From an uncultured Halobacteriales archaeon (GTDB lineage Archaea > Halobacteriota > Halobacteria > Halobacteriales > PXRE01), in NCBI GenBank assembly GCA_964435625.1, contig CAYTAG010000006.1:1-42624 (forward strand): a stretch of DNA of 42,624 nucleotides, in the 5' to 3' direction. The position numbers and the translations under genes were made by a program. Of this stretch, positions 26,049 through 42,624 are shown one piece after another. Every line of letters begins with the position of its first letter. The stretch's first letter is position 1. Below the pieces are notes generated by a model. The model did no database searches and had not been told where the DNA came from. It saw nothing but the letters and a program-made list of their open reading frames with translations.

Positions 26049-27386
26049 ATGGAAATCGAAATCGCAACCGTCGGCGGCTACGAGGAAGTCGGCCGCCAGA
26101 TGACCGCAATCCGTGCCGGCGACGACGTCGTCGTCTTCGACATGGGCCTGAACCTCTCGAAGGTACTGATCCACGACAACGTCCAGACCGAGGGAATGCA
26201 CTCGCTGGACCTCATCGACATGGGAGCGATCCCTGACGACCGGGTCATGAGCGAACTGGGCGGGCAGGTGCGAGCCATCGTGCCCACCCACGGTCACCTC
26301 GACCACATCGGGGCCATCTCCAAACTCGCCCACCGGTACGACGCACCGATCGTCGCCAGTCCCTTCACGCTCGAACTGGTGCGCGAGGAGATCCGCGACG
26401 AAGACAAGTTCGGCGTCGACAACGACCTCGTCGAGATGGACGTCGGCGAGACGATGGAGATCGGCGAGGGGCTCGAACTGGAGTTCGTCAACGTCACCCA
26501 CTCGATCATCGACGCGATCAACCCCGTCTTGCACACGCCGGAGGGCGCCATCGTTTACGGCCTGGACAAGCGCATCGATCACGACCCCGTGTTGGGCGAC
26601 CCAATCGACATGAAGCGGTTCCGCGAACTGGGTCGCGAGGGGGTGCTCTGTTACATCGAGGACTGCACCAACGCCAACAAGAAGGGCCGCACGCCCAGCG
26701 AGTCGGTCGCGCGCCGACACCTCGAGGACGTCCTCCACAGCCTGGAGGACTACGACGGCGGCATCGTCGCCACGACCTTCTCCAGCCACATCGCCCGCGT
26801 CAAGAGCCTCGTCGAGTTCGCCAACGAGATCGACCGCACGCCGATGCTACTCGGGCGGTCGATGGAGACGTACTCGGGGACGGCCCGGCGGCTGGACGTC
26901 CCGTATCCGGAGAGCCTGGAGATGTACGGCCACCGCCGGCCGATCGAACAGGCGTTCGAGCGCATCATGAACGAGGGCAAGGAGAACTTCCTGCCGGTCG
27001 TGACGGGCCACCAGGGCGAGCCGCGAGCGATGCTCACCCGGATGGGTCGCGGCGAGACGCCGTACGAACTGGACGAGGGCGACAAGGTCATCTTCTCGGC
27101 GCGGGTCATCCCGGAGCCGACCAACGAGGGCCAGCGCTACCAGTGCGAGAAACTGCTGGGCATGCAGGGCGCCCGCATCTACGACGACATCCACGTCTCC
27201 GGGCACCTCTCGCGGGAAGGTCACTACGAGATGCTGCAGGCGCTGCAGCCCCAGCACGTGATTCCGGCCCACCAGGACATGGGCGGCTACTCGGGGTACG
27301 TCGACCTCGCCTCCGACCAGGGGTACGAACTCGGCCGCGATCTGCACGTCACCTCGAACGGGAACACGATCCAGCTCGTCGAGTGA
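26049..27386 (+). CDS. rnj: Ribonuclease J (beta-CASP)
   Basis: [48 protein letters not shown]. Confidence 0.93.
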
Positions 27387-28646: not shown

Positions 28647-30308
28647 TCACATACTTTCCGTTAATTCGATCCCGAGAAGGTCCATGTATCTCCGAAGGAC
28701 CAGTATAGTGACCGAGACGATCGACAACCGCTTCCGTTCCTCATCACTTCCGACGATTTGATACTCGCTGTAGTAGGAATTGAACGTGTTCGCTAGATCG
28801 AAAGCCTCGCCAGCGATCACGCTCGGTTTTGATTTTGAGGCTGCCTCCGATACCGTCATATCGAACCTGATCAACTTATCGAGTATTTTTTGCTCCTGCT
28901 CGTTCGGATCGGACATCGGTTCGACACGCAGGTCGCTCTCGGCGTTCTCTAACAGGGACATACAACGCGAGTGCGTGTACTGGAGATACGGACCGGATTT
29001 CCCTTCGAACGAGAGGACCTGATCCCAGTCGAACGTCGAATCTGTTTCACGAGATCCCGACAACCAGGAGAACTTGATCGCGCTAATGCCGACTCTGGTG
29101 GCTGCCTCCTCCTCGTTCTCGACCTCGCCCTCTCGCGATTCGATAATCGACTTGACGCGGTCGATTGACTCCTGAATGAGATCTTCAGCCCTGACGATTC
29201 TGCCCTCTCTGCTCGACATTTGCCCGTCCTCGAGACTCATCAGCCCGTAATTGACGTGTTCGCAACGGTCCGGGTCACAGATTCCCAGCAATTCCGCACT
29301 CTTGAATAGCTGTTTGAATCGATGCCGCTGCTCGTTTCCGACCACGTAGAGGACCTTTTCCGGATCGTACCTATCGATTCGGTGTCGAAGGGCCGCTAAA
29401 TCCCGAGTGGCGTAGTTCGTCGTGCCGTCCGACTTACGGATGATCATGTTCGTGAGACCGTACTCTTCGAGTTCGACAATTATCGCTCCCTCACTTTCCG
29501 TCGCGATGCCCTCCTCGAGCGCTTCCTGAACGATTTTCTGCCCCTCGTATACGAATTCGGATTCCCCCGAAATATTTTCGAATTCCACGCCCAAGATGTC
29601 GTATATATCATTAAATTCCTCGATGCTAATCTCACGAAACATGCTCCAGGTCTCCCTTTTCTCCTCGTCCCTGTTTTCGAGTTCCTGGAACCACTTCCGG
29701 GCCTCCTCCTCGAGCGATGGGTCGTCCTCGGCCCTCTCATGAAACTGGACGTACAACTCGTATAATGAATCGATTTTTTTCTCCCGAATGGTTTCTATAT
29801 CCCCCCATTCTTCGAACGCGACTCCGAGTTTGCCAAACTGAGTCCCCCAGTCGCCCAGGTAATTAATTCCGGCGACGTCGTATCCCAGATGTGTGTATAT
29901 CCGTTTCAGTGAGTCCCCGATTATCGTAGTCCCCAGGTGACCGATGTGCATAGGTTTGGCAACGTTAGGAGACGAGTAATCGATTACAATCGTCTCGCCA
30001 CTATCGGGATCCCCGTCCAGCTGTTCGAGGAATCTATCGACGTTTTGACCGACGTAGTCCCAGTCGAGATCGATGTTGACGTACTGACGGCTACTGCTTA
30101 CGGATTCGACCGGATCGTATCCCCTCAATCTCTCAGCTAAGATATCACTTAGTTCCGAGGCGATCGCCGTCGGATCCTCACCCAGCGTGAAACACGGAAT
30201 TGCGATGTCCGCGTAGTCGGATTCCTCCTCGAAAGATAGTTCCGAACCATCTATCCTCTCAGGTATTTCCTCCCTAACCTTTCCCTCAACGTCCGAGATG
30301 ATGGTCAT
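28647..30308 (-). CDS. argS: Arginyl-tRNA synthetase, probably a horizontally acquired paralog
   Basis: DYSSPNVAKPMHIGH, NYLGDWGTQFG, KSDGTTNYATRD, MSSREG, GPYLQYTHSR; markedly lower GC than flanks. Confidence 0.9.
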   Translation of the reverse strand: MTIISDVEGKVREEIPERIDGSELSFEEESDYADIAIPCFTLGEDPTAIASELSDILAERLRGYDPVESVSSSRQYVNIDLDWDYVGQNVDRFLEQLDGDPDSGETIVIDYSSPNVAKPMHIGHLGTTIIGDSLKRIYTHLGYDVAGINYLGDWGTQFGKLGVAFEEWGDIETIREKKIDSLYELYVQFHERAEDDPSLEEEARKWFQELENRDEEKRETWSMFREISIEEFNDIYDILGVEFENISGESEFVYEGQKIVQEALEEGIATESEGAIIVELEEYGLTNMIIRKSDGTTNYATRDLAALRHRIDRYDPEKVLYVVGNEQRHRFKQLFKSAELLGICDPDRCEHVNYGLMSLEDGQMSSREGRIVRAEDLIQESIDRVKSIIESREGEVENEEEAATRVGISAIKFSWLSGSRETDSTFDWDQVLSFEGKSGPYLQYTHSRCMSLLENAESDLRVEPMSDPNEQEQKILDKLIRFDMTVSEAASKSKPSVIAGEAFDLANTFNSYYSEYQIVGSDEERKRLSIVSVTILVLRRYMDLLGIELTESM

Positions 30309-32988: not shown

Positions 32989-34044
32989 TCAGAGAGACGA
33001 GTATTCGTCAAGACATTTCTCCAATTCGTCTCGCCGCCGCTCTGCCTTCCGCTCCTTGGACCGCTGATCGTAATGCCGCTTCAGCACAGGTACGGAAACG
33101 TCGACCCGACCGCTCAACAGCTCCACCGGCACGCCTTTGTCCAACTGCCGCATGATGGCCCACTTCCGGAGCGGATGCGGACTGAACGACGACGGACATT
33201 CACTTGCGTTCGTACTTTCCGCCGCCGAACACGACGAGATCTCCCGTCCGTGCGGACACTCATCCGCAGACGTACACGGCCGCGTCATCTTGTAGAAGTC
33301 CCGCCGGATCGTCGGCAAAGACACCCGGCCTGATCCCGTCGTCAGCAATGACTCCCGACCGAACGTGTCGATGACCGATTCACGAGGTCCGTCTACGTAA
33401 TCACTGAGTAGTTCCTGAAGATCGTCCGAGACATTGACGATACGCTCACTGTCGCGCCCGTTCTTCAACGGCGTCCCGTACTCGTCCGTCCTTTCAGGCC
33501 GATGCCGCAAGTGCACCTGCGCGGCGTCGAAATCTACGTCCTCCAGATCGATAGCGCGAATAGCGCCCATCCGCAGACCGATCTCGGCAATTAGTTCGAA
33601 TTCGAGGTGGTGCCGGGCCGCGTACTCGAACTTCCCGTGGTAGGTTCGGACGGCCGCAACGGCCTCGTCGTCGGGCACCTCGTCACACACCTCCTCGTCC
33701 GGCGCCACGTTTGGGAACGGAATCTTCTCACTGAGGTCGGGCTCGACCGCGTCGATGGCCTCGCAGAACTCCAGGAACGGCCCGAGGACGCCGAGCGCGC
33801 CGTTGAGACTGACCGTGTTCACGCCAGTCTCCTCTTTCCGCCAGTTCTTGAACCGCAGCAGGTCCCGGCCACCGAGGTCGTTCAGGTTCTCGATGCCGGC
33901 CTGGTCGGTCCAGTCGACGAAGATGCCCAGCGCCGAGGCGTGCTTGCGCCGGGTCGCCACCCGCGTGTCGTCCTGGCGGTGCTCCAGGTACAGCCGGCGG
34001 GCCTCCGCGGGCGACAGCGGCTCCAGGCTCACGTCCTCGCGCAC
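32989..34044 (-). CDS. Second tyrosine recombinase/integrase
   Basis: GLRMG, LKNG, PHPLRK, HYD; the GTG start at 34044 is approximate. Confidence 0.9.
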   Translation of the reverse strand: MREDVSLEPLSPAEARRLYLEHRQDDTRVATRRKHASALGIFVDWTDQAGIENLNDLGGRDLLRFKNWRKEETGVNTVSLNGALGVLGPFLEFCEAIDAVEPDLSEKIPFPNVAPDEEVCDEVPDDEAVAAVRTYHGKFEYAARHHLEFELIAEIGLRMGAIRAIDLEDVDFDAAQVHLRHRPERTDEYGTPLKNGRDSERIVNVSDDLQELLSDYVDGPRESVIDTFGRESLLTTGSGRVSLPTIRRDFYKMTRPCTSADECPHGREISSCSAAESTNASECPSSFSPHPLRKWAIMRQLDKGVPVELLSGRVDVSVPVLKRHYDQRSKERKAERRRDELEKCLDEYSSL

Positions 34045-34106
34045 CTCGGTGGTCCCTGTTGCGGCCCGTAACCTCTTAGTGGATACGTGGTAACCAGGAA
34101 GCAACT

Positions 34107-34829
34107 ATGCCCGCCGACCCCGCATTGCTCACCCCGAGCCAGCGCGCGTTCCTGCGCGGCGAGAAGGAGTACGAACACGAGCAATCCGAGAAAGACATGC
34201 GCTACAAGATCCGCCAGCGCGTGCGGAACGGCCTGTTCGATCTCGCCCTTCTGTGGCAGCACATGGACGCCCGCGACCGCCGACAGCTGTTCAAGGACGT
34301 CCGCGCGGGCCAGCTCCGCGACGACGATGCAACGTTCGAGGACGAGGTGTACCGCGAGGACGAATCCACGGCGCTGGTGTACGCGGTGGCGTTTCTGTAC
34401 CAGGTCGCCGCGGACGTCGACTTCGACTTCGAGAAAGTTCTCGAGTTAGCCGCCGTCGCCCGCCAGGGCGAAAATCCGGACAACCCGTTCGCCGCCCGCA
34501 GCGTCGACGTGACTATCGACGAACGGCTGGTGTACGACTACGACCGCATCCGCCGGAAAGTCGAACAGGAGCAATCGCTCTCCGAGCCCGAGTACCTGGC
34601 GATGACGCGCCTGTTTCTCAGCGATCTCGAACGGTTCACGTCCGTCTGCCGGAAAACGGACCTCGACGTCCAGGCCAAACTCGACGCTGGTGAGCAATTG
34701 ACGAAGGGAGAGGCAGTGGTCGCCTTCGGCAAGGCGATCTCGTCCCCGACCAGTTACGACCGGGACGACCTCCGGGATCACATCCCCGATCGCGTCGCGT
34801 CGGCTCTCGGGTTCAACCTGGGCCGGTAG
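34107..34829 (+). CDS. Hypothetical protein, possible element-encoded regulator
   Basis: LLTPSQRAFLRG...RYKIRQRVRNGLFDLALL; divergent from the integrase. Confidence 0.65.
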   Translation: MPADPALLTPSQRAFLRGEKEYEHEQSEKDMRYKIRQRVRNGLFDLALLWQHMDARDRRQLFKDVRAGQLRDDDATFEDEVYREDESTALVYAVAFLYQVAADVDFDFEKVLELAAVARQGENPDNPFAARSVDVTIDERLVYDYDRIRRKVEQEQSLSEPEYLAMTRLFLSDLERFTSVCRKTDLDVQAKLDAGEQLTKGEAVVAFGKAISSPTSYDRDDLRDHIPDRVASALGFNLGR

Positions 34830-35605: not shown

Positions 35606-38600
35606 ATGGACCAACGGGTTTCGGGGGCCGTCGCGGTCGCCATGGCGGTGCTGGTGGTGACGGGGACAATCGGCCCAGCACTGGCCGCGGGTGGTTTCGG
35701 TGAGCAACGGCAGTCGAATGTCGTCGATCCGTCGGTCGTCTTCAGCGACGACGGGGCGGCGCTCGATCACCGGCTCCACGCCTACCGGATTCTCGATCAA
35801 GCAGACGCACAGCGCCACCTCGACGCGCTGAACGCGACGTTCGAGCACGTCGTCGACGAAAATCGCGTGAACGCGAGCCAGGTGTTTGCCACGGACAAGC
35901 GCATCGTCGCCCAGACACAGGCGCACCGCCCGGACGTCGGCGAACAACTGGTCGCCTCCGACCGCGTACTGGCCGAGACCGTAGTCGCCGACGCCCAGCG
36001 CGTCCGCGAGGGGATGGATCGCCGGAACCTCTCCTACGACGAAGCAGCCGTCAACGAAAGGCTGGCGAACGCCAGTGCGGCGCTCCAGCAGGGCCACAAC
36101 CACGTCGCGGGTAACGCCTCGCTCGTGGCGGCCGTCGAGTCGTACCACCGCGCCTGGCGGCACGCCCAGCGCGCGATGGATCTGATGCAGGCCGCGGTCG
36201 AGCCCCAGGTCGAGATCACCCGGCGGACGGACCCACCGCACAACGGGACCATCGAGTACACCGTGAAGGGCGTCGTCTGGGACGTCCGCTCGCACCGGAT
36301 GGCCGGAACGCTGACGCTCAACGGCGAACAGCGGAGCCTCGCGCTCGATACGTCCACGGTCCCCGGCGAGAACGTGACGTTCTCGACGACCGTCACACTG
36401 GAGGAGAAACGCAACTGGATCAACGTCTCGGTCTCGAATCCGCTGGAGTACGTCGATTACAGTCGGCGACCAGCGACGCCCGGCGGGCCAGGGAACGGCC
36501 AGCAGGGCAATGGTCCGCAGGGCCCCTCGAACGGGAACGAGACGGGACCGCCGGACGACCGGCCAGGAGGGCCACCTGACGACAGAGGAGCAGGGCCGCC
36601 AGATGGCAAAGGCGGAGGCCCGCCGGATGACAAGGGAGGGGGACCGCCAGATGAGAGGGGAGAAGGCCCACCTGATGACAAAGGAGAAGGCCCGCCCGAC
36701 GATGCGGGCAACGGTCCCTCGGACGATCAGAGCCAGAATTCGTCGAAGGGAAGCGGGCAAGGACCACCGGACGAGCCCGGAAACGATGACCCTGCGAATG
36801 ACGGGGGAGACGGCTCCAGTGGCGAGGCAGGGCAAGGAAACGCAAGTGAGGGACAGCGTGGCGAGGGCAACCAAGGTACCGGGGCCGATGAGGAGACCGG
36901 CAACGGGGAGGGACCAGGAAAAGGATCGGACGCCGGGAGTGGCTCCGCCAACGACTCCAGCGGGGCCGAGACGAACGGCAATAACGAAAGCGATGGTGGG
37001 GAAAACAATGCCGGACCCAGTAACGGGTCGTCGAACAGCTCTGGCGGCCCAGGGAACGGCCAGGGGAATGCCAACGCGCTCGCCAACGACCCCGGGAGCT
37101 GGTCTTCGACGAGTCCCAGGGCAGGCCACGGGTTCGGTGGCGTGGACACGATGGCCTACGGGGCCATGCTGGCTCCGCCCGAATCCGATGCGGTGCAAGT
37201 CGGTTTCGACGTCCTGAAGCTAGACGCCGACGGCCTCCCGGACCGCTACGAGGAGACCGTCGTCGGGACGGATCCGCTCGATACCGATAGCGACTCGCGG
37301 CTTACCGCCCGCAACGAGTCCGACGTCGGAACTATCGACGGGGCGAAGGACTTCGACGTGGACGGGCTGGCGACCTACCAGGAGTACCGGATCGGGACGG
37401 ATCCGCTGTCGAACGACACGACCGGCGACGGTCTCGAAGACGGCTTCCAGGTGCTGGTCGTCGGAACGGATCCGCTCGTCAACGACACCGACGGCGACGG
37501 GGTGGCGGACGCCCAAGAGGATCCCGACGGTGACGGGTTGACGCTGCTCGAAGAGCAGGAACACGGGACCCATCCGCGACTAAACGATACCGACGGCGAC
37601 GGCCTGACCGACGGGGAGGAAGTCCACGAGTACGACACCGATCCGCTAGACCCGGACAGCGACGGCGACGGATTGCTCGACGGCGAGGAAATCCGTCTGG
37701 ACCAGGACCCGCTGGCTGCCGACTCGGACGGCGACGGCGTCCCGGACGGCAACGAGACGTACACCACGACGGTGACAAACGACTCCAGTGAGGTCACCGT
37801 GACGGCGACCGGCGAAGGCGTCGTCGCCGACGGCCTTCACGTCCGGCACACGCCGACGGACTACGGGGGCAACGTCACGGCCGGGCCGATGGTGCGGATC
37901 ACCAACGACACGGCCGTCGAGGGAGCCACGGTGACGATGCCCATCGACGAGGGTGTGGACCTATCGGCGACGAACGTGACGATCTACACCTGGGACCCCG
38001 ACGACGAAGGGTGGGTCCCCCTGGAGACGACGGTCGACGCCGGGAACCGCACGGCGAGCGCGACCGTCTCGTCGTTCTCGTACTTCGCGGTGATGGACGA
38101 AGGGGCGAGGACGAAGGCCACCAGCCAATATGCCCAACCGGGGTGGCCGGCCCTGGAGACGTTCGACGACCTCGCCGACTGGACGGCAAGTGGCAACGGG
38201 ACCGTCTCGCTCGACGACGAGGTGGTGACCGTCCAGAGCCAGGAGGGGACCTCCGGCGACGGCGGTGGTGGCAACGACGGGAGTGGCGGTGACGACGGCG
38301 GTTCCGGGGGTAGCGGCGGCGGGGATTACGAACCGTACGACGAGAACTGGGAACTCCCGGGCACCGGCCCGGGTGGCAACGACGGCGACGACGGTGATGG
38401 TGGCGATGGTAGCGACGACGACGGGGACAGCGGCGACGGTGGTGGCAGCGAAGACGGGAGCGGTAGCGGTGGGAACGACGGAAGCGGCGACGACGGAAGC
38501 GGCGGCGGGGACAGTGGAGGGGACGGCGGGAGCGACGATGGATCGGGGGACGGCGACGGAACGAGCGGTCCCACGAACGCGTCCATCTCTCGGACGGTTT

Positions 38601-40861
38601 CGCTCCCGGAGACGACCGCGTCCATTGCGATCCAGGTGCGAGTGAAGGCCACGACGGGCGGCGTCGGCACGGCCGAAGTCGTCCTGGTGGGTGGTGGCGC
38701 CAGCGCGCAGGTCCTCGACCTGGGATATGGCGAAACGACGGATGGCTGGGTGACCCGCCGGATCTCGCCGGCCGCGGGGTCGTTCGCGGGCGAAGAGGCC
38801 ACGCTCACCGTGCGGACCGAGGGCAACGCGACCGTCCAGGTCGAGTACGTCGCGGTGGTGATCGACTCGACGGGCAGCGGCCTACCCGACGCGGTCGAGC
38901 GCCTGGACCTCCGGATGCCGACCGGCGGTCCCGGGGTCGCACACACGCTCCTTGACTTGGACCCGTCCCTGGCGGACACTGACGGTGACGGGTTGCGCGA
39001 CGGCGAAGAAGTGGACGTCGCCTGGGAGATCGTCCCCGACGCGGGGGAGTGGACGCTGTACGGCGAGGCCGTCGACGCCACCTCCCATCCCGGGCGGGTC
39101 GACACCACGGGCGACGGCCTCACCGACTCCCAGCAGGTCGAGGGGTGGTCGATCCGGGTCGTCGACGAGCACGACGACGCCACGGCGCTGATGGACGTGG
39201 TGAACGACCCCGACGCCGACGAGAACGTCTCGCCGTTCTTCGAGACGCGGTCGGTGACGGCGAACCCGCTGGTGAACCACACCGACGACGATGGGCTGAG
39301 CGACGCCAGGGAGTTCGCGCTCGGGACGGACCCCGGGCGGGAGGATACCACCGGCGACGGGATCGACGACGACGAGGCGCTGGCGCTGGAGACCGAGGAC
39401 CCGACGGTGTTCACGACGACCGGGCCGGAGGCGAGGCTGCTGTGGTACAACCAGGCGTCGGAGATCACCCTCACGGACCTGAAGTGGTACTTCCAGTACC
39501 GTTACAAGGTCGAGGATTCGGTCGGCATCCGGGAGTTCGAAATCTCGCGGCAGGGCACGACGTTCGACAGTGCCGCGGGCGGGAGGGCGAACGAAGTGTA
39601 TCGTACCAGTACGCGCGAATCGTTCATGGAGGGGGCGTTCACGGTCCTGCGCGGGTCGGTCGCGGTCGTCGAGGCAACCGACGTCTACGGGAATACCCGC
39701 AAACAGGTGCTCTATAGCCAGACTTCGTCGTTCGGCCACGCGCTGAAGGACGTGTCGCCGCTGGGCGCCGGGATGGTCTCGGGGGCCAGTCACTTCGCCG
39801 CGGAACTGCCCGAGTTCATCTGGCTGGCCATCACGGATCCGTTCGGGGTCTACGACGCCTTCAAGTCGTTCGTGGGCCAGCTCGGGCCCGATCTCATCGA
39901 GTTGCTGATCGAGAGCGTCCAGCGGACCCAACACCTCGACAACCCCTTCAACGAGAACCCCGACTCCGAGGAGTACAAGGAGTACGAACGCGGGTGGTAC
40001 GTCGGCTACGGGGCGCTGGCGGTCGCCGAGCTCGCACTGGGCCTGAAGGCGCTGAAAGGGATCGCGAGCGTTTCCAAACTGAAACAAACGTTGCAGACGA
40101 CGGCGAACCGCGTCGACGAGGTTAAGGCGCTGGTGAAGTCGGGAATGCCCCGGAAGACGGCGAAGATTACGAGGGAAGCTACGGATGGTGGTCCAGGTAG
40201 GGATTATACTCGGTTGGTGAGGGACCTCGAAACGGCGGGTGCAGTGAAGAACGTAAAACAGCTTGCCAAGGATATCGGACCTCGGTTCGAAGATCTGGAG
40301 CCGTCACATCCCCAACTTGGAACGTTCCTGCAGAAATACGGGGACAACGGCGTCGAGGTTATCAATAAACTGGATGATGCCTTTGATGCACACCCATTGC
40401 TGGGCGCTCCCGATGAGATTACCAACCGAATCATCCAAATGACTGCCGATTTCGACGTCAATCCGAGTGCGTTGATTCGCGTCGTTGACAAGGGCCATAA
40501 TCTTAAACGACTCGAAGAGTTACTCCGGACCAAAGCATCGGGAAGATGGACGGCTGGCCGACCTGGTGATCGAAACGCAAACTTCAACAAGCATTACTCG
40601 GACCACGCTCAAGAATGGAGTCCACCCTTGAGCAAGTCAGAATACAGGAGCAAGGCAAGAACCCTTGCAAACCAGAGAGACGGCGTTGAGATATATTACC
40701 AGATCGGGCAAGATCCATCGAATTTGATCGTGTATAACCGTGCTGCTAACGAGTTCGTGACACTTAATGCGAAAGGTGAGATTCAAACGTTCCACAGACC
40801 CAACCCTGGGCAGGTCGGGAAGTTAGTTAGGAATGGAAACGCAATACCGATCAAAACATAA
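35606..40861 (+). CDS. Large secreted polymorphic-toxin-like protein with DxDxDG repeats and a C-terminal RNase-like toxin domain
   Basis: Sec-type signal ending GPALA; GPPDD repeats; many DTDGDG(L) Ca-binding repeats; hydrophobic pre-toxin helices; low-GC tip KHYSDH...EY...YN...NEF...GEIQTFHRP. Confidence 0.8.
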   Translation: MDQRVSGAVAVAMAVLVVTGTIGPALAAGGFGEQRQSNVVDPSVVFSDDGAALDHRLHAYRILDQADAQRHLDALNATFEHVVDENRVNASQVFATDKRIVAQTQAHRPDVGEQLVASDRVLAETVVADAQRVREGMDRRNLSYDEAAVNERLANASAALQQGHNHVAGNASLVAAVESYHRAWRHAQRAMDLMQAAVEPQVEITRRTDPPHNGTIEYTVKGVVWDVRSHRMAGTLTLNGEQRSLALDTSTVPGENVTFSTTVTLEEKRNWINVSVSNPLEYVDYSRRPATPGGPGNGQQGNGPQGPSNGNETGPPDDRPGGPPDDRGAGPPDGKGGGPPDDKGGGPPDERGEGPPDDKGEGPPDDAGNGPSDDQSQNSSKGSGQGPPDEPGNDDPANDGGDGSSGEAGQGNASEGQRGEGNQGTGADEETGNGEGPGKGSDAGSGSANDSSGAETNGNNESDGGENNAGPSNGSSNSSGGPGNGQGNANALANDPGSWSSTSPRAGHGFGGVDTMAYGAMLAPPESDAVQVGFDVLKLDADGLPDRYEETVVGTDPLDTDSDSRLTARNESDVGTIDGAKDFDVDGLATYQEYRIGTDPLSNDTTGDGLEDGFQVLVVGTDPLVNDTDGDGVADAQEDPDGDGLTLLEEQEHGTHPRLNDTDGDGLTDGEEVHEYDTDPLDPDSDGDGLLDGEEIRLDQDPLAADSDGDGVPDGNETYTTTVTNDSSEVTVTATGEGVVADGLHVRHTPTDYGGNVTAGPMVRITNDTAVEGATVTMPIDEGVDLSATNVTIYTWDPDDEGWVPLETTVDAGNRTASATVSSFSYFAVMDEGARTKATSQYAQPGWPALETFDDLADWTASGNGTVSLDDEVVTVQSQEGTSGDGGGGNDGSGGDDGGSGGSGGGDYEPYDENWELPGTGPGGNDGDDGDGGDGSDDDGDSGDGGGSEDGSGSGGNDGSGDDGSGGGDSGGDGGSDDGSGDGDGTSGPTNASISRTVSLPETTASIAIQVRVKATTGGVGTAEVVLVGGGASAQVLDLGYGETTDGWVTRRISPAAGSFAGEEATLTVRTEGNATVQVEYVAVVIDSTGSGLPDAVERLDLRMPTGGPGVAHTLLDLDPSLADTDGDGLRDGEEVDVAWEIVPDAGEWTLYGEAVDATSHPGRVDTTGDGLTDSQQVEGWSIRVVDEHDDATALMDVVNDPDADENVSPFFETRSVTANPLVNHTDDDGLSDAREFALGTDPGREDTTGDGIDDDEALALETEDPTVFTTTGPEARLLWYNQASEITLTDLKWYFQYRYKVEDSVGIREFEISRQGTTFDSAAGGRANEVYRTSTRESFMEGAFTVLRGSVAVVEATDVYGNTRKQVLYSQTSSFGHALKDVSPLGAGMVSGASHFAAELPEFIWLAITDPFGVYDAFKSFVGQLGPDLIELLIESVQRTQHLDNPFNENPDSEEYKEYERGWYVGYGALAVAELALGLKALKGIASVSKLKQTLQTTANRVDEVKALVKSGMPRKTAKITREATDGGPGRDYTRLVRDLETAGAVKNVKQLAKDIGPRFEDLEPSHPQLGTFLQKYGDNGVEVINKLDDAFDAHPLLGAPDEITNRIIQMTADFDVNPSALIRVVDKGHNLKRLEELLRTKASGRWTAGRPGDRNANFNKHYSDHAQEWSPPLSKSEYRSKARTLANQRDGVEIYYQIGQDPSNLIVYNRAANEFVTLNAKGEIQTFHRPNPGQVGKLVRNGNAIPIKT
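36547..36730 (+). repeat. Intragenic 24-bp tandem repeats encoding GPPD(D/G/E)(R/K)xx
   Basis: GPPDDRPG GPPDDRGA GPPDGKGG GPPDDKGG GPPDERGE GPPDDKGE GPPDDAGN. Confidence 0.85.
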
Positions 40862-40868
40862 CATAAAC

Positions 40869-41465
40869 ATGGATAATAGACAAGAAGAGTTGGAATCCAG
40901 GCTTGACCATACCATCAATCAATTCAAAGAGATGTTGTCTGAGTTAGAGAAAATAACTGATGTATACGAAATCGAGACGTACGATCGAATTACCGTCGCG
41001 ACCACGATCTATCTTTCATATGAGTGTGAATTTCTGCTCGAAGAACTTCGCAAAGCCAATGAAGCGTCCGAATCCACGAGTCATACCTTCGCATCATTGC
41101 AAGAGTTACTAGATCATCTACTGGACCAGAAGTCATACCGAGAACAAGCAATCAAAGAACTGAAGACCAGGGTTGATAACTATCCGAGAAACATTTGCCA
41201 TTTTCTCGAATTAGATCCCATCTCCATCGAGTTAGAAAATACTCTTAGTGGACGGGACGTCATCCAGGTACTTCTTTTAGAACTCGAGGAAGACGAGTTA
41301 GACAATGAACGTGAGAAAGTTAATGCACTCGATGAAGTCCTTAGATGTCGATATGAGGTCCAGATCGAGACGATATTAGACGAATATAGTGATATCGAGA
41401 AATCATACTATCCGGGGTCGTTCTGGTGGCGACATCCCTCAGATGTCGCGGCTGAACTCGACTGA
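40869..41465 (+). CDS. Putative cognate immunity protein
   Basis: Starts 7 bp after the toxin stop; same low GC; acidic and helical; ends YYPGSFWWRH. Confidence 0.65.
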   Translation: MDNRQEELESRLDHTINQFKEMLSELEKITDVYEIETYDRITVATTIYLSYECEFLLEELRKANEASESTSHTFASLQELLDHLLDQKSYREQAIKELKTRVDNYPRNICHFLELDPISIELENTLSGRDVIQVLLLELEEDELDNEREKVNALDEVLRCRYEVQIETILDEYSDIEKSYYPGSFWWRHPSDVAAELD

Positions 41466-41561
41466 GTGGATTGAGTTGTCTGTCTCGCCTCCGGCGCCCA
41501 AGAGATCAATGGTGTCTCCGGTGCCGCAGAATTCGACAGCCGACTGTCGCGAGTGTTCGCT

Positions 41562-42475
41562 TATATCGACGAGGTCGGCCCGCTGATCAAAGCCGGGGCG
41601 AACCGGAAGACGGCGAAGATCACCCGGCAGGCGGTCGGGGACGGTGGTTCCCTCGACGTCGATTATACAGCGGTCGCGGGTAAATTGGGTGATCAGGGCT
41701 TCCAGGCGGGGAAACTTGACGAGGCGATCACGCGGTTGAGCCAAATCGACAGCCGGCACCTCCGGGCGCTGTCGCCCGACGACCAGGCGCGGCTGGCGGC
41801 GCGGTTGGTAAGCGTCCGGGACGGCGGGCAGGTCCGACGGTTCGTGAACGCGCTCGACGAGACGAGCGACGTCCGGCGGGTGCTTGAGGGGGACGTCCCA
41901 GCAACCAAGCGGATGAGCCGGTTGTGGGCGAACAAGGACAAGACGTCGGGAAGGATCAACGGATTACGGTACCGCCACGTCGATCCCGATCTTGAAGCCA
42001 GTGACTTCGTTCAAATTGCCCAGCAGGTGGAGTTGAAAAACACCCAGTTAATTGTCAAGCGAGGGGATGAACTTCGCTTCTTACAAAGAGGCACATTAGA
42101 GGAGGGCTGGAAGCACATTAAAGTCCGCCACATAGAGGCCTCATACAAATTAGATGCAAAAGAGGGTACAAGTTTCTTCCCGCTCGGCCGGACCGTGAAG
42201 GGTAATAAACTTCCAGATACTATGACGAAAGGCGAGGTGAAGATATGCTCTATGATGCAATTAAAGATGGTCATCCGTCACCTCAGGGCCAAAAGACCAA
42301 ATATTACTTCCAGCCGAAACAAAATGGGTATCCTGATAGTGGAATCGTCGACATGAGGATTTTCGTGTTACCAGACGGAATGATCGAAACTGCGTACCCA
42401 CTTAGCGGAGAGGCTGTCAAAAAGTGGGTTCCTGAGTTGAATGATGGACAAGGTGGACTGGTGGATACTGTATGA
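41562..42475 (+). pseudogene. Orphan alternative toxin C-terminal module (EndoU/BECR-like RNase), frameshifted near 42241
   Basis: Begins IDEVGPLIKAGANRKTAKITRQAVGDGG (homologous to the main-protein junction); GWKHIKVRH...TSFFP, then IETAYP in a shifted frame. Confidence 0.7.
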
Positions 42476-42615
42476 GTACAAAACACGTGTTTCAAGCGGC
42501 GGAGATCGAGTTCCAGTTTGATCAAAAGTATCAGGAGCGAGTAATGCAAGCCAAGCCAGATAGCTGGATAGGGCCTTGTTTAGACGCTCGGACTTTTGCA
42601 GTCCGAGGCTTGTAG
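42472..42615 (+). CDS. Probable orphan immunity gene, likely interrupted
   Basis: ATGA overlap with the orphan toxin stop; MSTKHVFQAAEIEFQFDQKYQERV..., ends after 47 codons just past a putative IS end. Confidence 0.45.
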   Translation: MSTKHVFQAAEIEFQFDQKYQERVMQAKPDSWIGPCLDARTFAVRGL

Positions 42616-42624
42616 AACTCGTGT
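42572..42624 (+). mobile_element. Possible terminus of an IS5-family (ISH1-group) element
   Basis: GGCCTTGTT resembles the ISH1-type terminal repeat (TGCCTTGT), followed by a CTCGGACT/AGTCCGAG hairpin; cut by the window edge. Confidence 0.4.

Follow-up and report, generated by a model that had tools for sequence, protein, structure and literature searches.

The segment from position 35606 to 42624 of the window (the whole stretch of DNA that was analysed, 42,624 nucleotides long) is probably a haloarchaeal locus for a polymorphic toxin exported by the Sec route, composed of a large carrier, a swappable RNase tip, an immunity gene and a broken spare cassette (Table 1). Of the attributes by which Zhang et al. 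2012 (PMC3482391) recognize polymorphic toxins, a secretion-signal-like N-terminus, a stalk, varying tips, a toxin fold, a co-varying downstream gene and orphan cassettes were found. We infer that the tip would be toxic, that the carrier would be exported and cut at its DGG junction, that the tip would enter target cells and that the downstream gene would give protection.

The source assembly is 84% complete and is divided into 383 contigs, and the locus continues past the contig end. Pieces of the carrier, the tip and the immunity gene at least 99% identical to those of the window were also found in a second, independent sequencing run; no RNA run holding the locus was found among the sequencing runs listed. 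Upstream, an ORF at 32989-34104 resembles integrases, with a sub-threshold Pfam match to Phage_integrase (E 3.7e-4).

Table 1. Features of the putative toxin locus, with positions in the window and the basis of each assignment
Feature	Position	Strand	Basis
Carrier ORF, 1751 aa	35606-40861	+	ORF list and translation
Signal-peptide-like segment, carrier residues 1-28 (...GPALA/AGG)	35606-35689	+	Hydropathy scan
Low-complexity G/P/D/N/S linker, residues 297-515	36494-37150	+	Composition and motif count
First TSP3-type Ca-binding repeat block (DxDxDGxxDxxE), residues ~545-717	37238-37756	+	Pfam and motifs
Acidic G/D/S linker, residues 865-988	38198-38569	+	Composition (40% G, 23% D)
Second TSP3-like repeat block, residues ~1085-1260	38858-39385	+	Motif and translation
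Conserved pre-toxin domain, residues 1266-1529, 264 aa	39401-40192	+	Genome matches and alignment A5
Tip 1 helical linker subdomain, residues 1530-1644	40193-40537	+	AF2 model, helices 6-112
Tip 1 toxin domain, residues 1645-1751 and stop; predicted BECR-fold RNase of 8ey4/colicin D type	40538-40861	+	AF2, structure and profile
Candidate immunity gene for tip 1, 198 aa	40869-41465	+	Downstream homologues
Orphan pre-toxin stub, last ~55 residues of the domain, ending NRKTAKITRQAVGDGG	41475-41648	+	Match to pre-toxin residues 209-263
Orphan helical linker, GC 0.66 (carrier-like)	41649-41969	+	Alignment A3; G129 homologue model, helices 5-93
Orphan BWH57-type BECR toxin domain (predicted), GC 0.47, frame-broken	41970-42475	+	Profiles A2 and A3, G129 model
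Orphan immunity gene, 5' fragment, 33 codons	42472-42569	+	BLASTP; ATGA overlap with tip stop
Start of repeated element, interrupting the orphan immunity gene and ending the contig	42570-42624	.	Contig-end identity

Architecture of the carrier

The sequence-only reading of this DNA had described a 1751-aa frame with a signal peptide, G/P/D linkers, DxDxDG repeats and hydrophobic helices, and all of these were recovered, the helices with a reservation given below. The hydropathy scan showed one segment with a mean Kyte-Doolittle value above 1.5, located within residues 4-32, with Arg4 before it and ALA/AGG after it, and the signal-peptide-like stretch as a whole (residues 1-28) contains one Arg and lacks a twin-arginine motif. 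Of 10 related carrier frames compared, 7 have similar N-termini (e.g., ...FAVLLATS.VAMPALASGP), and the remaining three (L024, L025 and L030), which are without such an N-terminus, are seemingly N-terminally short. The putative signal peptide is assigned from hydropathy and conservation. The helices that had been noticed are present near residues 1400-1490; their hydrophobicity is only moderate and everywhere below the 1.5 threshold, and no membrane-spanning segment other than the N-terminal one was seen in the carrier by the scan.

Both linkers were identified by their composition. The first one contains seven GPPD(D/E/G)x units, and TRF reported in it a repeat with a period of 24 and 4.8 copies at 36581-36696, and two further TRF rows (38257-38302 and 38475-38504) lie inside the acidic linker. 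The Ca-binding repeats were reported by Pfam as TSP3_bac (PF18884) in four stretches with an E value of 1.5e-6, above the cut-off, and five strict DxDxDGxxDxxE motifs were counted, four in the first block at residues 627, 661, 684 and 706 and one in the second block at residue 1124, where looser repeats are also seen in the translation. Weak, sub-threshold matches of the repeats to the Myxococcus adhesion/cohesion proteins CglD and MtsD were observed, and VWA adhesion domains are present in relatives of the carrier. TSP3_bac was the sole Pfam report for the carrier at E <= 0.1, with no Rhs, haemagglutinin or TPS family among the matches, and neither a VENN string nor a PxxxxDPxGL motif is present, in agreement with the earlier view that the carrier is neither Rhs nor filamentous haemagglutinin.

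Pre-toxin domain and junction

Between the stalk and the tip the carrier has a conserved domain with the pattern PTVFTTTxP ... LSGFTHGASELPE ... NP ... GWYxGY ... KTxxI...DGG, which ends in ...RKTAKITREATDGG at nt 40192, and 24 columns are invariant in its alignment of 10 sequences (A5). The domain was found in 62 of the 401 sampled genomes of the class, belonging to 34 of 91 genera, and the frames that host it in this sample are mostly open over 1000 to 2700 aa; some genomes have multiple copies, at five places in G191 and four in G165. In a sample of the phylum it was found in 11 of 401 genomes, of which two are outside the class, and a pattern scan of genome contigs, of limited sensitivity, gave three loci, all of them haloarchaeal, with loci in Natronorubrum bangense, Halopiger djelfimassiliensis and Halovenus rubra. 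No Pfam family corresponds to the domain, with nothing better than E 0.03 across the 10 members of A5, and the best look-alikes in the ESM Atlas (scores of 0.79 and 0.77) are at chance level. The three word-based homologue searches of the analysis, which are of limited sensitivity, returned 5, 3 and 4 proteins.

The pre-toxin domain together with the exchangeable helical linker behind it might form an archaea-specific release-and-entry device, which would sever the tip at DGG and bring bacterial-type RNase cassettes across the S-layer and the single membrane without an outer-membrane receptor or a CdiB-like partner; we put this forward as a speculation that is more apt to fail than to hold. 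If true, it would be a delivery mechanism without bacterial counterpart and also a route for toxin cassettes across the domain boundary.

The first tip and its putative immunity gene

The tip following the junction comprises 222 aa, which divide into a helical linker and a predicted RNase domain of some 105 residues with the BECR fold. The linker is common, at 28-32% identity, to tips bearing a different toxin domain, and no convincing structural match for it was found in the PDB. For the toxin domain, the AF2 model has a pLDDT of 91.4, and its VIA structural match to 8ey4_A, the CdiA-CT chain of an E. coli 'PT-VENN domain-containing protein', has a Z score of 11.5 and an rmsd of 1.9 A with 85 of 88 residues aligned, in comparison to Z scores of 7.4 to 8.1 for colicin D and 5.3 for colicin E5. 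The profile of the tip family (A1) also matched 8ey4_A in the PDB with an E value of 1.4e-21, covering chain residues 7-88 of 88, and its match to colicin D was marginal (E about 0.09). Foldseek gave nothing at E <= 0.001 for the tip 1 model (best 9.1e-3), searching the PDB with the tip as a single sequence returned matches at chance level only, Pfam and NCBIfam reported nothing above threshold for the tips and the small genes, and no paper on 8EY4 was found by full-text search. On the profile and the models, the predicted RNase domain is homologous to bacterial CdiA-CT and to tRNases of the colicin D type, and the earlier description of this tip as RNase-like thus held. By fold and by profile, the second tip, too, corresponds to an RNase toxin domain known from CdiA proteins of bacteria. 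The same toxin domain also terminates other architectures, e.g., TSP3 with VWA in P0036 and P0117, and one related cluster bears the source label 'pyocin large subunit-like protein'.

The conserved residues of the domain are K1662-H1663, H1667-A-Q-E1670 and T1728. Over 41 sequences, tip positions H134, H138 and T199 show almost no variation, and all of them are kept in the window copy, which is off-consensus at one nearly invariant column, with Q at tip position 207 where at least 90% of sequences have Y. The domain matches in part the Tox-ColicinD pattern of [KH]K, Hxx[ED], [ST] and [TS]xxK, as given in the portion of PMC3482391 consulted, in that KH, HAQE and T were found; no residues were recognised as its last element, [TS]xxK. 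H1663 and H1667 are the obvious candidates for catalytic residues.

The small gene that had been described as tightly linked begins 7 nt after the carrier stop, and five homologues align from its ATG, with the conserved motifs ...CHFLELDP...ALDEVLRC...Y.P.SFWWRHP. No Pfam or NCBIfam family was found for the 198-aa immunity candidate. In genome G246 a homologue (33% identity, E 2e-31) lies directly 3' of the same toxin domain, and the same was found in G007. The family is directly downstream in all three sampled genomes with the tip 1 toxin domain; three further homologues are metagenomic. The complex prediction for the toxin domain and the 198-aa protein, which was run without controls, scored 0.00 twice.

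The likeness to colicin D in structure and, marginally, in profile, together with the pyocin-like label of one related cluster, is what can be said for a diffusible mode of action, in which a halocin-like bacteriocin, either the whole protein or a processed tip, would be released into the brine and taken up like colicin D, the downstream gene again being the immunity gene. Release is also favoured by the carrier itself, which has no membrane-spanning segment beyond the N-terminal one and no possible C-terminal anchor because its C-terminus is the toxin. The N-terminal segment may, however, be an uncleaved signal-anchor, the long stalk of repeats and linkers is more like a 'toxin on a stick' than the compact colicins, and no sequence feature separates diffusible from contact-dependent action. 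We consider diffusible release possible, if rather doubtful.

Tip exchange between related genomes

Homologous carriers were compared, which should have a constant N-terminus and variable C-termini if the sequence-only reading were right, and their N-terminal part is indeed constant, with divergence exactly after (T/A/S)DGG. The congeneric carriers of G246 and G367 are about 96% identical over about 1190 residues, with 50-column windows showing 82% to 100% identity up to column 1200, in comparison to 42, 23, 26, 12, 27 and 20% in the windows past SGSKTG...DGG. The G246 tip is of the window's tip 1 class (52% identity, E 3e-72) and the G367 tip is of the class of the window's orphan module. Junction-precise tip replacement between related genomes was seen, and several tip classes were found behind one type of DGG junction in 10 loci.

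The gene following the tip was also compared. Among 22 loci with complete tips of the orphan's class (BWH57-like, see below), the next same-strand ORF belongs to one family in 15 and to a second family in 5, with 2 being unclear, and the two families are specific to subclasses of the tip. In terms of sequence families, the downstream gene co-varies with the tip class, which agrees with the toxin-immunity-orphan layout that had been proposed, as do start-less cassettes at other loci: short ORFs matching tips were found downstream of the main gene three times in one locus of G263 and twice in G114. An abrupt fall in GC content after the junction had also been reported; a fall does exist, and it is stepwise rather than abrupt, with 0.62 to 0.72 in the carrier, 0.52 in tip 1 and 0.41 to 0.44 in the next gene. 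In each of the 10 loci compared, GC content is lower in the toxin domain and in the gene downstream of it than it is in the carrier.

These observations bear on an explanation without antagonism, according to which the carrier would act as an adhesin of the cell surface or as a matrix protein, with a C-terminal RNase that scavenges nutrients or remodels biofilm outside the cell, and the small gene would protect the producer before export in a barstar-like manner. The sub-threshold CglD and MtsD matches of the repeats and the VWA domains of carrier relatives would fit such a protein. A tip swap between congeners that is precise to the junction, however, is a polymorphic toxin signature for which a housekeeping exo-enzyme gives no reason, tip-specific downstream genes, start-less spare cassettes and atypical GC content would be equally unexpected in it, and the nearest solved relatives of the domain are antibacterial toxins. 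We thus regard the adhesin explanation as very improbable.

The orphan module and the contig end

A second module without a start, with the same junction and a different tip, had been claimed downstream of the first cassette, and this proved correct. Its frame is open from 41475 and contains no ATG, the sole start-type codon being a GTG at 41553, and its junction NRKTAKITRQAVGDGG, ending at 41648, shares 18 identical nt with that of the carrier. The tip resembles the CdiA-CT of Serratia BWH57. The frame changes near 42236-42246, and the last 76 codons are for this reason in the ORF 42245-42475; this change is seen in one assembly only, the contigs of the other run ending at about 41640, short of both the frameshift and the insertion described below. 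The module matched profile A2 in two frames, at 41694-42242 with E 4e-56 and at 42239-42469 with E 2.5e-23.

The fold assignment was made on the intact homologue in G129 (43-57% identical) and not on the frameshifted copy of the window, and the model of this homologue matched 7m5f_C with a Z score of 9.8 and an rmsd of 3.1 A over 111 of 119 residues. Foldseek matched the same model to the BWH57 CdiA-CT with E 3.3e-4, and profile A3 matched 7m5f_C with E 0.0015 and with the H-x3-(R)-H of the archaeal family aligned in place; the shallower profile A2 (four sequences) gave nothing significant against the PDB. The H-x3-R-H motif of the window's copy is HIKVRH at nt 42114. According to the part of PMC8616854 consulted, the BWH57 CdiA-CT has the BECR RNase fold, with H47, E51, H52 and R89 as candidate catalytic residues. 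For an assignment of the orphan tip to EndoU_bacteria (PF14436) there was one weak Pfam match, in one of four family members (E 0.0041), and the pieces in the window gave none.

The second small gene, said to be ATGA-coupled to this tip, does start at 42472, and it is interrupted at 42570; this insertion and the frame change were both absent from the earlier note. By BLASTP in a database of 23 sequences, the fragment matched the genes that follow the tips of G129 (E 5e-7) and G114 (E 4e-7), and this similarity stops at 42569. A search of the 84%-complete assembly with a short query found no match for the remainder of the gene. Positions 42570-42624 recur with 100% identity at the ends of two other contigs of the same assembly, C167 and C69, the summed contig depth at this repeated element is 134.6 in comparison to 38.5 elsewhere, and there are two loose ends at 42570/42571.

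Of the two cassettes, only the first can be active, as the second is broken in its tip as well as in its immunity gene, and the orphan module may be a relic or a reserve cassette. Decay may have gone further, with an array eroded by mobile elements and frameshifts in which the first cassette, too, has lost expression or activity; the frameshifted tip, the cut immunity gene and the upstream integrase-like ORF, itself below the cut-off, all point this way. The main frame of 1751 codons is nevertheless intact, as is its immunity gene, the independent run holds the nearly identical pieces described at the outset, and the consulted part of Zhang et al. 2012 (PMC3482391) describes broken orphan modules as normal in active polymorphic toxin loci. 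Complete decay is, in our view, quite unlikely.

Proposed mode of action

As a polymorphic toxin, the locus might work as follows. The Ca-binding TSP3 repeats and the disordered G/P/D linkers would form an extended stalk, and the carrier would be displayed on the producer or released from it. The tip would then be severed from the carrier, at the DGG junction or close to it, and enter a neighbouring cell, where the RNase would cleave tRNA or other RNA and growth would stop. The gene at 40869-41465 would supply the producer and its kin with a 198-aa protein that binds and neutralises the RNase. The orphan module could replace the resident tip through recombination at the shared junction.

To our knowledge, there has been hardly any bench work on how archaea fight other microbes of their domain. 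The locus offers a compact, parsed example, with an intact carrier, a sharp junction, a small predicted RNase with a solved bacterial homologue and an intact 198-aa immunity candidate.

Comparison with known systems

According to the part of PMC8416519 consulted, Makarova et al. 2019 used computation to predict polymorphic toxin systems for many archaea, Halobacteria among them, with RNase and DNase as the commonest tips; in 2021 these systems were described as predicted and not experimentally characterised. Compared through this citing description only, those systems are similar to the locus in being large multidomain secreted proteins with variable C-terminal toxins, in Halobacteria and Methanomicrobia. 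The suggestion that the system may be uncharacterised therefore stands for experiment and not for prediction, and the locus adds to a class that had already been predicted. No experimental test of a Sec-type archaeal polymorphic toxin system was found in the literature searched. Archaeal carriers in the 2019 study by Makarova and colleagues (mBio 10:e00715-19) are said to include arCOG07560.

Toxin-immunity pairs associated with a T6SS/CIS in Halogeometricum borinquense, whose toxicity and protection were tested in Haloferax volcanii according to the consulted part of PMC11566945, are similar to the locus in having a haloarchaeal toxin with downstream immunity. Those toxins, as described there, are tied to a contractile injection system, whereas the carrier here combines a signal-like N-terminus with a stalk of repeats, and the window contains no CIS genes. 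The colicin D and klebicin D tRNases (ImmD) share the BECR fold with tip 1; their carrier and immunity protein are unrelated to those found here, and the locus is seemingly chromosomal and not on a colicin plasmid. Similar to the locus, toxins of the Rhs/WapA/teneurin type have a large carrier, a polymorphic C-terminal toxin, an immunity gene and orphan modules, and they differ from it in the RHS/YD repeats (Pfam) and the PxxxxDPxGL motif, which the carrier does not have.

The CdiB/CdiA/CdiI systems share with the locus a constant stalk, a short pre-toxin junction, a linker or entry domain with a nuclease CT, a downstream immunity gene and orphan modules, and the toxin domains here appear, by profile and model, to be homologous to the CdiA-CT of E. 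coli O32:H37 (8ey4) and of S. marcescens BWH57 (7m5f). Unlike CDI, the locus has no TPS domain, FHA repeats or VENN, the lack of an outer membrane in the organism leaves no place for a CdiB, and a DGG junction and a stalk of TSP3 repeats and disordered linkers are found instead. Toxin domains of enterobacterial CDI thus seem to circulate in haloarchaea on a different carrier, which bears on how far toxin cassettes travel between domains.

Pre-toxin domain and exchange of tips

The sequence-only reading had proposed a polymorphic toxin locus with a secreted repeat carrier, an exchangeable tip, a linked small gene and a start-less second module. Its coordinates and description were borne out, and a frameshift in the second module and the point where the second small gene's family similarity ends were added (see the table below). 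For the carrier family and its junction, the decisive comparison was that of G246 with G367, two genomes of one genus. Measured in 50-column windows, their carriers keep an identity of 82-100% through column 1200, and directly past SGSKTG...DGG the values fall to 42, 23, 26, 12, 27 and 20%. The G246 tip is 52% identical to tip 1, the C-terminus of the window's carrier, and the G367 tip is of the same class as the orphan tip, the one in the window's second module. The carrier and orphan junctions in the window share 18 identical nucleotides, and since this identity is short, it is considered plausible only that the orphan and resident tips recombine.

Coordinates of the features in the window
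Feature	Position	Strand	Remark
RNase J-like gene	26049-27386		housekeeping
Arginyl-tRNA synthetase	28647-30308		housekeeping
371-codon ORF	32989-34104	-	weak sub-threshold Phage_integrase match, E 3.7e-4
240-codon ORF	34107-34829	+	divergent, without family
Carrier ORF	35606-40861	+	1751 residues
Pre-toxin domain	39401-40192	+	264 residues preceding the tip
First small gene	40869-41465		198 aa
Second module	41475-42475		frameshifted near 42236-42246
Second small gene	from 42472		ATGA-coupled; family similarity ends at 42569
Terminal segment	42570-42624		last 55 bases

The pre-toxin domain was used as the query for distribution. The window's own genome was matched at this locus only, by the carrier itself and by the 55-residue stub of the second module, and neither of the two other genomes of the family (81% and 66% complete) was matched. 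The class sample gave the domain in 62 of 401 genomes and 34 of 91 genera, most matches lying late in open frames of 1000-2700 codons and some in short frames; a 10-sequence profile matched 11 of 401 genomes in the phylum-wide sample, 2 of these outside the class, and one metagenomic relative is labelled Candidatus Methanoperedens. Going by the named relatives (Natronolimnobius, Natronosalvus, Natronorubrum, Halopiger and Halovenus), the lineage is haloarchaeal. The Pfam scan found no family matching the domain, and the ten-sequence alignment has 24 invariant columns, including PT.F....P, GWY.GY and the terminal K(T/S).......DGG. In the closest carrier homologue (L022, G129:C20, 3989-8605) an in-frame TAA within this domain splits the frame into 1163 and 375 codons; NCBI annotates the second part, under Natronolimnobius sp. 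AArcel1, as a hypothetical protein of 343 aa.

The source assembly is a metagenome bin (3.67 Mb, 383 contigs, 84% complete), and the window takes up its contig C6 entirely. Pieces from run X2, a sequencing run of another study, match the carrier, tip 1 and the immunity gene at 99% identity or more, and reach about 41640. At window position 40861 a low-depth contig of this run (2.7x) carries one extra C right after the carrier stop, within the 7 nt that separate it from the immunity gene; this is either a strain difference or an error. A search for RNA data yielded none.

Carrier, linker and base composition

Residues 4-32 are the sole strongly hydrophobic stretch of the carrier in a hydropathy scan and are compatible with a Sec-type signal or a signal-anchor; a twin arginine is absent from the N-terminus. 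TSP3_bac repeats were the only Pfam family found in the carrier, which holds five strict DxDxDGxxDxxE motifs, seven GPPD(D/E/G)x units and a linker of 40% glycine and 23% aspartate. The GC content falls stepwise from 0.68 in the carrier to 0.52 in the first part of the tip, 0.49 in its second part and 0.43 in the next gene. Within the second module it is back at 0.66 over stub and linker and is 0.47 in the toxin domain; the orphan's break lies at the linker/toxin boundary and not at DGG. In all ten loci compared, GC was below that of the carrier in the toxin domain and in the downstream gene alike.

The first ~100 tip residues form a separate module, 28-32% identical across tips with different toxin domains. 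In some relatives (loci L056, L058 and L057 of genomes G035, G294 and G061) this helical linker gives two to four consecutive profile matches, and is thus a repeatable module.

Toxin domains

Modelled with AF2 from an alignment of 41 rows (pLDDT 91.4), the 222-residue tip has helices up to residue 112, followed by an alpha/beta domain. Foldseek returned nothing for this model at E <= 0.001, the top probabilistic matches being a CdiA-CT chain and colicin D; structural re-alignment gave Z 11.5 for 8ey4_A (rmsd 1.9 A, 85/88 residues), Z 7.4-8.1 for colicin D and Z 5.3 for colicin E5. The tip-1 family profile also found 8ey4_A by sequence (E 1.4e-21), and the nearly invariant H134, H138 and T199 of the family correspond to carrier residues H1663, H1667 and T1728.

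A full HMMER scan of the pre-toxin domain plus tip against 1.84 billion representatives gave 126 matches at E <= 0.001, many covering just the last ~100 residues of the query, as C-termini of proteins with other architectures or as small stand-alone proteins. Among ten of these scanned, TSP3 was found in 4, VWA in 2 and no family in 5; one, a long coiled-coil protein, looks like a chance match. The protein P0041 (300 aa; cluster members named Methanoculleus caldifontis) has an immunity-like C-terminal motif (...YPDEFWWMHP) directly followed in one frame by a tip-1-type toxin domain, and may represent a methanogen immunity gene that is fused to, or read through into, the orphan toxin next to it.

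Tips of the orphan class were found in 39 of the 401 genomes sampled from the class. The model of the intact G129 homologue (pLDDT 95.7) matched S. marcescens BWH57 CdiA-CT with a Foldseek E of 3.3e-4 and Z 9.8 over 111/119 residues, and the class profile matched it at E 0.0015. The depositors, in a passage of PMC8616854, describe this domain as a BECR-fold RNase whose candidate catalytic residues include H47, E51 and H52. H-x3-R-H is kept in the archaeal family at the aligned position, and reads HIKVRH in the window.

Putative immunity genes and the contig end

The first small protein is without any Pfam or NCBIfam family, and its homologues lie directly downstream of the tip-1 toxin domain in both G246 and G007. 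Apart from the window's own genome, only these two in the sample have a tip-1 match that covers the domain, those of G367 and G212 covering the linker only. Of 22 loci with orphan-class tips, 15 have a member of one family as the next same-strand ORF, and 5, those whose tips diverge most, have a member of a second; the other 2 are unclear. The window's 33-codon immunity fragment is a member of the first family (E ~5e-7 in a small database).

Two other contigs of the genome have the terminal segment, with full identity, at one of their ends (C167:1-55 and C69:14696-14749), and contig depth from its start on is ~3.5-fold, so a repeated element interrupts the second immunity gene and ends the contig. 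The segment is probably one end of an insertion element, which would have broken off the assembly and truncated this gene; a short inverted repeat, CTCGGACT / AGTCCGAG, was read by eye within it. The divergent 240-codon ORF lies just upstream of the toxin locus, it and the 371-codon ORF come after the housekeeping genes, and the locus may sit within an integrated island.

Proposed mechanism and comparison with known systems

The data fit a polymorphic toxin. The carrier would be exported, its repeats forming a Ca-stiffened stalk; processing or translocation might occur within the conserved pre-toxin domain, the linker and RNase would act in the cytoplasm of a neighbouring cell, and the cognate small protein would neutralise the RNase in kin. 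For this locus we infer export, release, entry, the target RNA and protection.

The locus works like CDI and Rhs systems but is a member of neither, having none of their TPS, FHA, VENN or YD features. The archaeal passages of Zhang et al. 2012 (PMC3482391) describe such systems as only rare, with PVC-type toxins in haloarchaea; Makarova et al. 2019, as summarised in part of PMC8416519, predicted polymorphic toxin systems with RNase/DNase tips in many archaea including Halobacteria, which that passage calls uncharacterised as of 2021. The full-text search found experimental work solely for T6SS-linked haloarchaeal toxins (passages of PMC11566945). Given these predictions and experiments, the locus is a case of a known kind already predicted computationally, and it is useful in that its junction is defined, both tips have solved CdiA-CT domains as homologues and its immunity family is nameless.
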